Position numbers and translations under genes: made by a program. DNA of 4,709 bases from Escherichia coli (GTDB lineage Bacteria; Pseudomonadota; Gammaproteobacteria; Enterobacterales; Enterobacteriaceae): assembly GCF_003334785.1 (NCBI RefSeq), contig NZ_QOWV01000045.1. One strand, given 5' to 3'. Positions 821 to 4,507 of the stretch are shown piece after piece (positions within the stretch are counted from its first letter, which is position 1; each line of letters begins with the position of its first letter). Below the pieces are notes generated by a model that saw only the letters and a program-made list of their open reading frames with translations, ran no database searches and was not told the origin of the DNA.

Positions 821-904
821 CTGATCGTTTAAGGAATTTTGTGGCTGGCCACGCCATAAGGTGGCAGGGAACTGGTTCTGATGTGGATTTACAGGAGCCA
901 GAAA

Positions 905-996
905 AGTGAAAACCCCGATAATCTTCTTCAACTTTGGCGAGTGCGAAAAGATTACCGGGGCTAACAAGAAACCGTATAGCCAACAATTCAGCTATG
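905..996 (-). ncRNA. copA: CopA antisense RNA (about 90 nt), complementary to the repA mRNA leader (CopT)
   Basis: On the minus strand there is a small 5' hairpin (972..979 pairing with 991..998). It is followed by a long imperfect stem-loop (913..925 pairing with 948..960, 12 bp with one mismatch, 22-nt loop). A U-rich tail then follows (plus-strand 901..912 GAAAAGTGAAAA reads UUUUCACUUUUC on the minus strand), making an intrinsic terminator. A sigma70-like promoter sits just upstream on the minus strand. The ends are approximate. Confidence 0.6.
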
Positions 997-2819: not shown

Positions 2820-2890
2820 TCAAACAGACTTGTTAAGCAGTCTTTCAGGGTGTAAGGTGAAGACCTGTTAAACAGTCTCAGAGGTGTGTT
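2820..2890 (+). promoter_or_regulatory. Candidate promoter/operator of the toxin-antitoxin operon with three iterated 9-mers
   Basis: Three copies of AA(A/G)CAG(A/T)CT at 2822..2830, 2835..2843 and 2870..2878, in the 70 bp upstream of the antitoxin ATG, with GAGG (2881..2884) as ribosome-binding site. Iterated sites overlapping the promoter are typical of autoregulated toxin-antitoxin operons. The promoter hexamers were not confidently placed. Confidence 0.35.
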
Positions 2891-3142
2891 ATGCCCAGTA
2901 TCATTTTGTCTGACACCAGTGCAAGCGTCAGTGAACTGAAAAAAAATCCAATGGCGACAGTCAGTGCCGGAGAGGGTTATCCTGTTGCCATTCTTAACCG
3001 GAATCAGCCTGCATTCTACTGTGTTCCTGCTGAATTGTATGAAAGGATGCTTGATGCTATGGATGACCAGGAGCTGGTGAAACTGGTTACTGAACGCAGC
3101 AATCAGCCACTACATGATGTGGACCTGGACAGTTATTTATGA
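2891..3142 (+). CDS. Type II antitoxin, Phd/YefM/StbD-like (83 aa)
   Basis: ORF MPSIILSDTSASVSELKKNPMATVSAGEGYPVAILNRNQPAFYCVPAELYERM... has the N-terminal pattern of Phd/YefM-fold antitoxins and an acidic C-terminal tail. Its stop overlaps the toxin start in ATGA (3139..3142), the classic toxin-antitoxin coupling. Confidence 0.8.
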   Translation: MPSIILSDTSASVSELKKNPMATVSAGEGYPVAILNRNQPAFYCVPAELYERMLDAMDDQELVKLVTERSNQPLHDVDLDSYL

Positions 3143-3426
3143 CTTATACGGTTAAATTCAGGGATGATGCCCTCAGGGAATGGCTGAAACTGGATAAATC
3201 CGTTCAACAACAGTTCGCAAAAAAACTAAAAAAATGCAGCGAAAATCCTCATATACCTTCAGCAAAACTACGTGGATTAAAAGATTGCTACAAAATAAAA
3301 CTTCGTGCATCAGGTTTTCGTCTGGTCTATCAGGTGATTGATGACATGTTAATTATTGCGGTTGTCGCAGTAGGTAAACGTGAACGTAGTCATGTTTACA
3401 ATCTCGCCAGCGAGAGAATGAGATAG
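3139..3426 (+). CDS. relE: RelE/ParE-superfamily toxin (RelE/StbE-like mRNA interferase, 95 aa)
   Basis: ORF MTYTVKFRDDALREWLKLDKSVQQQFAKKL...KLRGLKDCYKIKLRASGFRLVYQVID...VGKRERSHVY is closely similar, from memory, to E. coli RelE (KLRGMPDCYKIKLRSSGYRLVYQVID...VGKRERSEVY). Same length as RelE and 4-bp overlap with the antitoxin gene. Confidence 0.85.
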   Translation: MTYTVKFRDDALREWLKLDKSVQQQFAKKLKKCSENPHIPSAKLRGLKDCYKIKLRASGFRLVYQVIDDMLIIAVVAVGKRERSHVYNLASERMR

Positions 3427-3435
3427 GGGGTGTTA

Positions 3436-3981
3436 ATGCTTTTAAGTTTTAGTGAGTTAGATGTTCTTATTTATCAGGGGAAGGTTGGGGGTTTATTTCG
3501 TGAAAGAAAAAACGAAAGGATTGCTACAGACATTGATTCCAGAAACAAGTCATCATCAAGCAGTCATGAATATGATTCAGTTTTATCATTTCTATTTATT
3601 TGTGATAATGGAAAAGAAATAAATGTGAATTTAACAAATTGGAATATTAACATATTTCCAGGTCAAGAGATTGTCATTTATTTTGTGGAAAACTCAAAGA
3701 AAAACAAAAAAATACCATACATGATAAAAAACAAAAGCACATCGGAAGTGACTAATAATGTTCAAGAAATGTATAAAGAGTTTTTTTATACATCATACTT
3801 CAAACTGATAATACCTTTCCTTTTAATCATTTCTTACTTTATGTCATCCATATCTGTGGCTATCATGTCATTCGTTTTATATGTCATAATCAGAAGAAGA
3901 ATAGGAAAAGATTTCTTTTCAGAAATAAAAAGGAAAAGGTTAAAAAAAGAAGATATCATGGGGTTAGAGCACGTAATATAG
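3436..3981 (+). CDS. Hypothetical small membrane-anchored protein (181 aa from ATG 3436), AT-rich orphan gene of unknown function
   Basis: Uninterrupted 181-183 codon frame in DNA of roughly 25-30% G+C (by eye), where stop codons should be frequent. GGGGG (3425..3429) lies 6 nt before ATG 3436; GTG 3430 is an alternative start. The product has a polar N-terminal region with a Ser run, one long hydrophobic segment FKLIIPFLLIISYFMSSISVAIMSFVLYVII, then a basic tail RRRIGK...KRKRLKK. I recognise no family. Confidence 0.7.
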   Translation: MLLSFSELDVLIYQGKVGGLFRERKNERIATDIDSRNKSSSSSHEYDSVLSFLFICDNGKEINVNLTNWNINIFPGQEIVIYFVENSKKNKKIPYMIKNKSTSEVTNNVQEMYKEFFYTSYFKLIIPFLLIISYFMSSISVAIMSFVLYVIIRRRIGKDFFSEIKRKRLKKEDIMGLEHVI

Positions 3982-4028
3982 GGGCGACAGGTCCTTATAA
4001 GGGACCGTCCAGGGACCGGAGTTCCATT

Positions 4029-4070
4029 GCTACGCCGGAACCGCCGAAATTTCCGGCGTAGCTCTCTCTT
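4029..4070 (+). terminator. Candidate intrinsic terminator after the AT-rich gene
   Basis: Perfect 12-bp inverted repeat GCTACGCCGGAA (4029..4040) / TTCCGGCGTAGC (4051..4062) with a 10-nt loop, followed by the pyrimidine/T-rich tract TCTCTCTT. A second hairpin, GGTCC-TTATAAG-GGACC, lies at 3990..4006. The U-tract is weak, so the terminator function is tentative. Confidence 0.35.
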
Positions 4071-4088
4071 GCCTGGACGTTCTGTTGT

Positions 4089-4126
4089 GGGGGGTGAGGG
4101 CCAATGGAACGAAAGCGTACGGTAAG
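4089..4126 (+). mobile_element. Terminal inverted repeat (38 bp) of a Tn3-family transposon, Tn1000 (gamma-delta)-like; transposon interior lies to the right
   Basis: GGGGGGTGAGGGCCAATGGAACGAAAGCGTACGGTAAG matches from memory the Tn1000 repeat GGGGTTTGAGGGCCAATGGAACGAAAACGTACGTTAAG at about 34 of 38 positions. It also carries the Tn3-family hallmarks: GGGG terminus, TGGAACGAAA core, ACG..TAAG inner end. Orientation puts the element outer end at 4089. Confidence 0.65.
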
Positions 4127-4507
4127 GGCTCCGTTTGGGAAACGGACAATATTGTACGGTTGCGTTATCGCGGTAGGGTGTACTCCCGCGCTATACGGTG
4201 TTTTCAGGATAATTGGTCTTAATCGGATAACCTAAATGCGATACAGCAAGAGCGACAACTTAAAAGCGATTAAACCTGCCGCCGCCAGAACGGTACAGTC
4301 CCTGACACAGGCACCACTGGTATAATCCAGTAAAGAGCATATGGAGAACTTATCATGTCGTCACGCAACTCTATACATGATTTTATAATGCTGCTCCCGG
4401 CGCTGCTGTTTGTTGGTAAGCGTACAGCCTGAACCGTCTGGTCAGAATCTGACGAATTAGACAAAGTGGTGTCCACCAAATAAGTAGTGGGAACCAAAGT
4501 GTCAGAT

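Follow-up and report, generated by a model that had tools for sequence, protein, structure and literature searches.

Several type II toxin–antitoxin (TA) operons, including PaaR-PaaA-ParE, TAC, PasABC and HipBST, carry a third cistron, and in these systems the third protein is a soluble regulator, a chaperone or a split antitoxin that is conserved with the pair. Small, AT-rich genes for membrane-anchored proteins borne on mobile elements are familiar from single-gene abortive-infection and exclusion systems, which the gene considered here resembles in these respects. In addition, the place immediately behind a replicon-adjacent TA pair can hold a further gene: in the ColV plasmid pS88, the slot after yacA/yacB is occupied by yacC, which is annotated as a 'putative exoribonuclease' (PMC3438092). 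Here, we describe an open reading frame (ORF) of 181 codons that lies in the same slot in an Escherichia coli plasmid sequence (contig NZ_QOWV01000045.1 of RefSeq assembly GCF_003334785.1; the whole stretch of 4,709 nucleotides that was analysed is referred to as the window). The ORF is a genuine gene under purifying selection, and the match between the window and plasmids that have the TA pair without the ORF ends at the stop codon of the toxin gene. We consider it probable that the ORF serves enterobacterial plasmids as a functional accessory gene and that recombination has placed it behind the TA pair as a passenger, rather than as a part of the TA system.

A gene under purifying selection

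The ORF (plus strand, 3436-3981) starts with ATG 3436, ends with the stop codon TAG (3979-3981) and is separated by a 9-nt gap from the TAG that closes the toxin gene (3424-3426). A GGGGG run resembling a Shine-Dalgarno sequence (3426-3430, plus strand) ends 5 nt before the ATG, and it is conserved in all of 11 compared copies, which comprise the window copy and another ten, from F-type, IncK/Z and I-gamma plasmids, that were aligned for the analysis of selection. GTG 3430 was considered as an alternative start and dropped: in nine of the 11 copies the change T3434A creates a TAA that shuts this frame, and the start is therefore placed at ATG 3436. A consensus scan found no sigma-70-like promoter on the plus strand from the TA promoter region to the start of the ORF, and the 9-nt gap is too short for any terminator. 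The G+C content of the ORF is 28.6%, compared with 39.2% for the relE-like toxin gene, 46% for the phd-like antitoxin gene, 57.7% for repA1 and 51% for the DNA downstream (3982-4420), where it reaches a maximum of 58.5% (4001-4200). In all these points, that is, a 181-codon frame with its own GGGGG site 9 nt behind a relE-like stop, the lack of an obvious promoter and a G+C content sharply below that of its neighbours, a preliminary description of the window proved accurate.

Could such a frame be open by chance in AT-rich DNA? At the base composition of the ORF 9.2% of random codons are stops, so that 181 stop-free codons have a probability of 2.7e-8. Open runs reached 129 codons at most in 20,000 shuffles, and the remaining five frames contain 8-20 stops each. 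Among the 11 copies, 16 of the 27 variable sites fall on codon position 3, and synonymous changes account for 14 of 29 single changes, against about 19% of sites being synonymous (binomial p = 4e-4; pN/pS about 0.25). A chance frame was rejected on the open-frame probability, on this synonymous excess and on the existence of full-length homologues.

The homologues come from 14 hits, belonging to three lineages, that HMMER returned when run exhaustively against 1.84 billion representative proteins; a profile search of 5.8 billion proteins found no lineage beyond these. Besides the lineage of the window, they are represented by P0046 (194 aa), from a 1.2-kb Logan contig (L003), and by P0050, from a Salmonella enterica plasmid contig (L004), in which the true ORF has 178 aa (L004:7806-8342). 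Both align with the window protein over almost its full length with 36-44% identity and 58 invariant residues. Pairwise dN/dS among the three lineages is 0.17-0.39, with synonymous sites saturated. Thus, the gene is real and its frame has long been maintained, and the ORF is not the strict orphan for which it had been taken.

G+C is 26-29% in all three lineages, within plasmids of 46-52%. Since low G+C is common to the whole family, it is no mark of recent acquisition. Such AT-rich DNA is a typical target of H-NS in Enterobacteria, and by analogy low basal expression of the ORF may be predicted. As for P0046, its C-terminus (QERKNENADIR...) corresponds to the 3′ end of a higB-like toxin gene (L003:988-1027 versus L004:6669-6708, 92.5% nucleotide identity), and P0046 is therefore a chimera with a recombination joint inside its tail. 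Contig L003 begins and ends with the same 26 nt and so closes on itself.

Relation to the toxin–antitoxin pair

The pair in front of the ORF consists of a Phd/YefM-type antitoxin gene (83 aa, 2891-3142, plus strand), which is the first TA cistron, and a RelE/ParE-superfamily toxin gene (95 aa, 3139-3426, plus strand), which overlaps the antitoxin stop by 4 nt. The antitoxin gene comes from the ORF list and has a weak NCBIfam match to YafN; in identical or related plasmids the Prokaryotic Genome Annotation Pipeline names its product 'Phd/YefM family antitoxin' or 'plasmid stabilization protein'. The toxin passes the curated cut-off of TIGR02385 RelE_StbE (34.6 bits; cut-off 27.9), a score that places it in a superfamily with mRNases (RelE) and gyrase poisons (ParE). 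An identity with ParDE-I of IncI1 plasmids was considered and dropped: the ParDE-I antitoxin has been described as a ribbon-helix-helix protein (RHH/COG3905), while the antitoxin here is Phd/YefM-like.

When the segment 2850-4300 was used as query, it matched 1,131 plasmids, mostly via the TA pair, but the ORF is present in only about 90 of them. Approximately 1,000 plasmids with the pair and without the ORF cease to match at query position 576-577, where the toxin gene has its stop codon (window 3426). After the common TAG, three lineages continue differently: GGGGTGTTAATG in the window, TTATCTTT in L015 and TAACCGGG in L016. An ORF-less IncK2/Z plasmid has 104 nt between the toxin gene and an acetyltransferase gene, where an ORF-bearing relative has a block of 1,323 nt that includes the ORF, structured G+C-rich non-coding DNA and another small gene. 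The slot after yacA/yacB is a variable cargo position.

The two parts also differ in their histories. The ORF is about 98% identical across all copies, whereas the identity of the TA genes depends on the backbone, being 99.6-100% in F-type carriers and 94-95% in IncK/Z carriers. The pair lies directly upstream in at least 87 of the 91 ORF-bearing plasmids. In pE2855-1 (L008:1139-2691), an IS91-family insertion destroys the toxin gene and the ORF is intact. A second IS91-family insertion at this locus, in pHB42-5 (L002:2842-4041), leaves just the first 31 nt of the ORF.

Across homologous loci, the ORF is not conserved together with the TA pair as a tripartite system would be. The Salmonella homologue is located 250 nt downstream of HigBA-type genes and has an AT-rich upstream region and an AAGGAG site of its own; on its 3′ side an AT-rich lipoprotein gene is followed by a hairpin. 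From these signals, it looks like a unit of its own. The lipoprotein gene was considered as a conserved partner and dropped, since neither the window nor L003 has it. TA genes are close to the ORF or its homologue in all three lineages, and they belong to different families near the homologues (HigBA, a VapB-like gene). This nearness is most simply attributed to the density of TA modules in the cargo regions of plasmids.

Taken together, the sequence comparisons point to a mobile cargo gene that recombination has attached to one edge of a modular TA cassette, and not to a tripartite TA system. The preliminary description had regarded the ORF as an unusual third TA cistron and as a separately acquired single-gene island. 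Its operon position stands, and so does its separate joining to the TA pair, in view of the homology break and the discordant divergence; a recombination joint at the cassette edge accounts best for the position, and the island in the IncK/Z plasmids is a 1.3-kb block of several parts, low G+C being a property of the family as a whole.

How, then, is the gene expressed? Co-transcription from the TA promoter is plausible. Because the spacer is only 9 nt and no promoter is detectable, read-through from the TA promoter is the simplest model, and if it applies, expression of the ORF would follow TA autoregulation. Two similar direct repeats, TTGTTAAGCAGTCTTTCAGGGTGT and CTGTTAAACAGTCTCAGAGGTGTG, are located just 5′ of the antitoxin start (2826-2885); read by eye, they are probably operator sites of an autoregulated TA promoter. 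According to one paper, the yacA/yacB transcripts of plasmid E2265p1 of enterotoxigenic E. coli (ETEC) are up 2.6-2.7-fold in freshwater (PMC11957205). E2265p1 carries the ORF, which is not mentioned there.

Predicted architecture of the protein

The protein has three regions, in agreement with the polar N-terminal region, hydrophobic segment and basic tail noted at the outset. Residues 1-120 (3436-3795, plus strand) are polar; the prediction for them is an OB-like beta-barrel of small size, in which a loop rich in Ser, Lys and Asn (aa 27-46) is disordered and aa 109-116 form a short helix. Residues 121-152 (3796-3891, plus strand) are predicted to form a single long hydrophobic helix of 32 residues according to hydropathy (Kyte-Doolittle 19-residue mean up to 2.2), AlphaFold2, conservation and helical-wheel angles. 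The remainder (codons 153-181, 3892-3978, plus strand) is a basic tail (RRRIGKDFFSEIKRKRLKK...), conserved to about aa 172 and variable beyond; from residue 152 it has a net charge of +5.

An AlphaFold2 model of the whole chain, built from a four-sequence alignment, has a mean predicted local distance difference test score (pLDDT) of 68.5 and a continuous helix over residues 120-178. The N-terminal 120 residues modelled alone reach a pLDDT of 77.6, with 88-94 in the core and disorder again in loop 27-46. The predicted domain is a five-stranded closed barrel that can be superposed on solved OB domains, as expected of a small beta-barrel of the OB-fold. Foldseek against AFDB50 matched it to about 40 uncharacterised proteins of 180-230 aa from a wide range of Proteobacteria and Bacteroidota, with E-values from 1e-5 to 1e-3 and TM-scores to the query of 0.5-0.64; the label 'Transmembrane protein' is given to two of them, and 'DUF4178 domain-containing protein' to one.

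The share of invariant residues is equal in the hydrophobic helix and the barrel core (34% each). In the helix, the invariant residues S120, P127, L130, Y134, S137, S138, S145 and Y149 lie on one face, within a single 120-degree arc, which suggests a helix that does more than anchor the protein, packing against itself or against a partner. The product is predicted to be inserted in the inner membrane, and the positive-inside rule indicates that the basic tail should be on the cytoplasmic side.

Distribution and database searches

The ORF is present in 91 of 72,556 PLSDB plasmids, from Escherichia, Salmonella and Citrobacter. Among 5,426 complete E. coli genomes, 89-93 (1.6%) carry it, and there it is always plasmid-borne and never chromosomal. 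The copies in these two collections are at least 95% identical in nucleotide sequence throughout. Carriers include ETEC CS6 plasmids (e.g., pCss165Kan), O111 plasmids and IncK/Z plasmids encoding extended-spectrum beta-lactamase (ESBL). The segments 3427-3981 and 2850-4300 of the window are 100% identical to the E. coli plasmid pWP7-S17-ESBL-04_2, and in this as in every public record the ORF is annotated as 'hypothetical protein'.

As the preliminary description had anticipated, the protein cannot be assigned to any named family. Pfam gave nothing significant for the ORF, for its aligned homologues or for the L004 lipoprotein; NCBIfam and PHROGs gave no match for the ORF or the homologues; PADLOC-DB 2.0 (5,027 models) produced no match at E≤1, whether with the ORF or with the two distant homologues; and a search of PDB sequences with the family profile returned noise only. 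No papers were found under the protein accessions. From these searches, the ORF appears to represent a very small, undescribed protein family restricted to enterobacterial plasmids.

The suggestion of an abortive-infection or other defence effector fared less well. Besides the lack of a PADLOC family, no relatives were found among 50,697 phage records (tblastn) or in IMG/VR (pattern scan). The neighbours are replicon genes, TA pairs, insertion sequence (IS) elements, an acetyltransferase gene, a ProQ/FinO gene and genes of type IV secretion systems, and no recognised defence system was seen among them; TA pairs can themselves act in defence.

A model for the origin and role of the ORF

An outline of the favoured model is as follows. 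Recombination at the right-hand edge of the Phd/YefM-RelE/ParE cassette would have put the gene 9 nt after the toxin stop, and the former upstream region of the ORF would have been lost in that event. Transcription of the ORF would then most probably be due to read-through from the autoregulated TA promoter, with ribosomes loading at its own GGGGG site. In its product, an N-terminal OB-like barrel of about 120 aa would be tethered to the inner membrane by the long helix with its conserved polar stripe, followed by a basic amphipathic tail that should be cytoplasmic. The barrel may bind a protein or nucleic-acid ligand at the membrane, and the polar face of the helix may drive self-association or docking to a membrane partner. 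A cost of the gene, or a merely conditional benefit, could explain its recurrent knock-out at homopolymer tracts, described below. As to function, we tentatively suggest that the product is a plasmid conflict factor acting at the level of the membrane, in defence, exclusion or fertility inhibition.

Several points weigh against this model. The nearness of TA genes in all three lineages may reflect some functional link to TA modules. Confidence in the AlphaFold2 model of the full protein is moderate (pLDDT 68.5 from four sequences). The N-terminal domain of 120 aa has no signal peptide, and a simple single span would demand unusual export of an N-terminal tail. A role as conflict factor is a guess, drawn only from plasmid location, AT-richness, membrane anchoring and neighbourhood; no functional homologue exists, and neither PADLOC nor PHROGs provides a match.

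Alternative explanations

A more specific proposal is that the ORF is a conjugation factor, acting in entry exclusion or fertility inhibition at the inner membrane against the type IV secretion system of an incoming or rival plasmid. The family is confined to plasmids of conjugative or mobilizable type (of the 91 ORF-bearing PLSDB plasmids, 64 are conjugative and 18 mobilizable), its product is predicted to be membrane-anchored with a conserved helix face, and one homologue, beside its lipoprotein gene, is inside a virB/pilX operon between virB4 and virB5, close to where exclusion genes sit in IncN and IncP plasmids. However, in F-type and I-complex plasmids the ORF is beside the replicon, outside the transfer region, and the Salmonella site also has two TA pairs, resembling a general cargo insertion point. 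Similarity to named exclusion proteins (TraS, Eex, TrbK, ExcA) was not found in the Pfam and NCBIfam scans, a weak test given how diverse these families are. We regard a conjugation factor as unlikely. The Salmonella site itself (L004:6300-8750) is a cargo insert within the virB/pilX transfer operon of an IncX-like plasmid; it contains a HigB/HigA pair, a 57-aa ORF with a second HigA gene, the ORF homologue and the gene for the 110-aa lipoprotein (31.5% G+C, no family match).

Another possibility is an envelope-stress or membrane-homeostasis protein that would be related at the level of fold to the beta-rich proteins of the DUF4178 type, which have been reported in PspA-associated operons (PMC11237479). 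The DUF4178-labelled model among the Foldseek neighbours (E-value 1.1e-4, TM-score to query 0.56) speaks for this kinship, but its root-mean-square deviation from the ORF model is 11 Å and small beta-barrels match promiscuously. In addition, none of the four aligned sequences matches Pfam DUF4178 (PF13785) at E≤10, and Psp-type neighbours are absent from all three contexts. This explanation appears improbable.

Is the ORF instead a decaying passenger without current function, kept by linkage to the replicon and the TA pair? Frames are broken at four homopolymer sites among the 11 aligned copies. The alignment reveals a hot spot in a G-A5-C-A7 tract (3699-3712, plus strand), in which G3699 is deleted throughout the IncK/Z and I-gamma clade, a loss that is common to the clade and therefore inherited, and in which L011 has an extra A near 3705. 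A T7 tract (3781-3787, plus strand) has lost one base in three otherwise different copies (L013, L007, L012), and an A7 tract (3942-3948, plus strand) has lost one in L009. Of 29 PLSDB copies sampled evenly, about eight depart from the length of 555 nt, truncated products of 95-106 aa form clusters of 115 and 29 member sequences, and the gene is rare, as judged from the complete E. coli genomes. On the other hand, synonymous changes are in excess within the clade, the frame has been kept at full length across synonymous-saturated lineages with the low dN/dS given above, and in a large protein collection intact 181-aa forms occur on more than 1,600 contigs versus tens for each truncated form. 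Moreover, a part of the indels in long-read assemblies may have arisen as sequencing errors at homopolymers; the truly inactivated fraction is probably about 5% to 25%. Frameshifts in related sequences, which the preliminary description had said would count against the gene, thus affect a minority of copies only, and their pattern fits a dispensable or conditionally useful gene. That the ORF is simply decaying seems to us quite doubtful.

A bolder idea is a two-tier killing or abortive-infection module, in which antitoxin loss caused by phage, plasmid loss or stress would de-repress the TA promoter and thereby switch on a membrane-active OB-barrel protein. If so, the nearness of TA genes in all three lineages would be a recurring partnership, a membrane effector wired to a TA sensor; we consider this very improbable.

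Finally, the ORF could be an integral third TA component, a co-regulated membrane protein that modulates, localises or executes the RelE/ParE response, as its 9-nt gap, own ribosome-binding site, lack of a visible promoter, the pair upstream in at least 87 of 91 plasmids and the TA genes near both distant homologues might imply, but this is highly unlikely given the approximately 1,000 plasmids in which homology ends at the toxin stop and the pair stands without the ORF, the slot filled elsewhere by yacC or the acetyltransferase gene, the discordant histories, the different TA families near the homologues, one of them 250 nt away with its own signals, and the intact ORF behind the toxin gene destroyed in L008.

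Other features of the window

The window as a whole constitutes the basic replicon of a plasmid of the IncFII type, with copB/repA2 (527-787), the CopA antisense RNA (904-995, minus strand; Rfam RF00042, 101.7 bits), repA1 (1068-1937; TIGR03474, 581 bits), the origin region and a repA4-like ORF. In addition to CopA, Rfam gives a weak signal of a repZ-type leader pseudoknot in the interval 904-1033, as expected in an IncFII replicon; these two, far upstream of the ORF, are the sole Rfam signals in the whole window.

On the other side of the ORF, a palindrome, GACAGGTCCTTATAAGGGACCGTC, starts 5 nt past the stop codon (3986-4009, plus strand) and is the downstream part present in every compared copy, the homology of L005, L008 and L017 extending to 4012. 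It may terminate the transcript or make it more stable. It overlaps with a long, imperfect, G+C-rich hairpin (3992-4093, plus strand; -55.8 kcal/mol, z -2.8), which includes a perfect 12-bp stem (4029-4040 / 4051-4062). Because it has no U-tract, this hairpin is not a canonical intrinsic terminator, and a terminator scan listed none at 3992-4093. The segment 4013-4163 is missing in the F-type and ETEC copies (L005, L008, L017) and is therefore an indel-prone module.

Two further elements lie beyond it. A non-coding element of about 100 nt (approximately 4166-4270) recurs with 84-97% identity in hundreds of otherwise unrelated plasmids, including the IncN plasmid pNDM-ECS01 and small plasmids of Klebsiella, Hafnia, Serratia and Enterobacter, where it is unannotated and has no Rfam match. 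The signals of a second small gene (4316-4417, plus strand) are an extended -10 sequence, TGgTATAAT (4316-4324), a GGAGAA site and the start codon ATG 4355. The intact copy in an IncK/Z plasmid (L014:3281-3517) codes for a membrane protein of 78 aa with a single helix; the window copy is truncated after about 21 codons, homology to L014 ending at 4416, where IS-type sequence begins.

Comparison with known systems

If the membrane activity of the product is real, the ORF would represent an undescribed small family among the accessory genes that accompany maintenance genes on F-type, I-complex and X-type plasmids of E. coli and Salmonella, with carriers that include virulence plasmids of ETEC and enterohaemorrhagic E. 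coli as well as ESBL plasmids. Its position also offers a test of whether cargo behind an autoregulated TA promoter inherits stress-inducible expression. Otherwise, it is one well-supported 'hypothetical protein' among many in the variable regions of plasmids, and its odd-looking position has an ordinary explanation.

The AFDB proteins of 180-230 aa are similar to the ORF product in overall size, and their models match its predicted N-terminal barrel. They have no detectable sequence relationship to the ORF and come from diverse phyla, whereas its family is plasmid-only and extremely AT-rich. Among the closest known OB-like barrels are enterobacterial proteins that are membrane-anchored or small and stand-alone, namely YhhM/DUF2500 (PDB 3q6c), PmrD (4hn7) and IraM (8twd). 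Unlike the single-gene abortive-infection and exclusion proteins, the ORF has no match in PADLOC or PHROGs and no phage or defence-island context.

With the three-gene TA systems the ORF shares its place as third cistron of a type II operon. In contrast to their third proteins, its product is a predicted membrane protein, and the gene is absent from about 90% of the plasmids that bear the pair and has a separate history. In position the counterpart is yacC of pS88, which occupies the same slot right after replicon-adjacent yacA/yacB and is probably set apart from the ORF, in view of annotation and distribution. The ORF is confined to about 90 PLSDB plasmids, which argues that yacC and the ORF are different genes.

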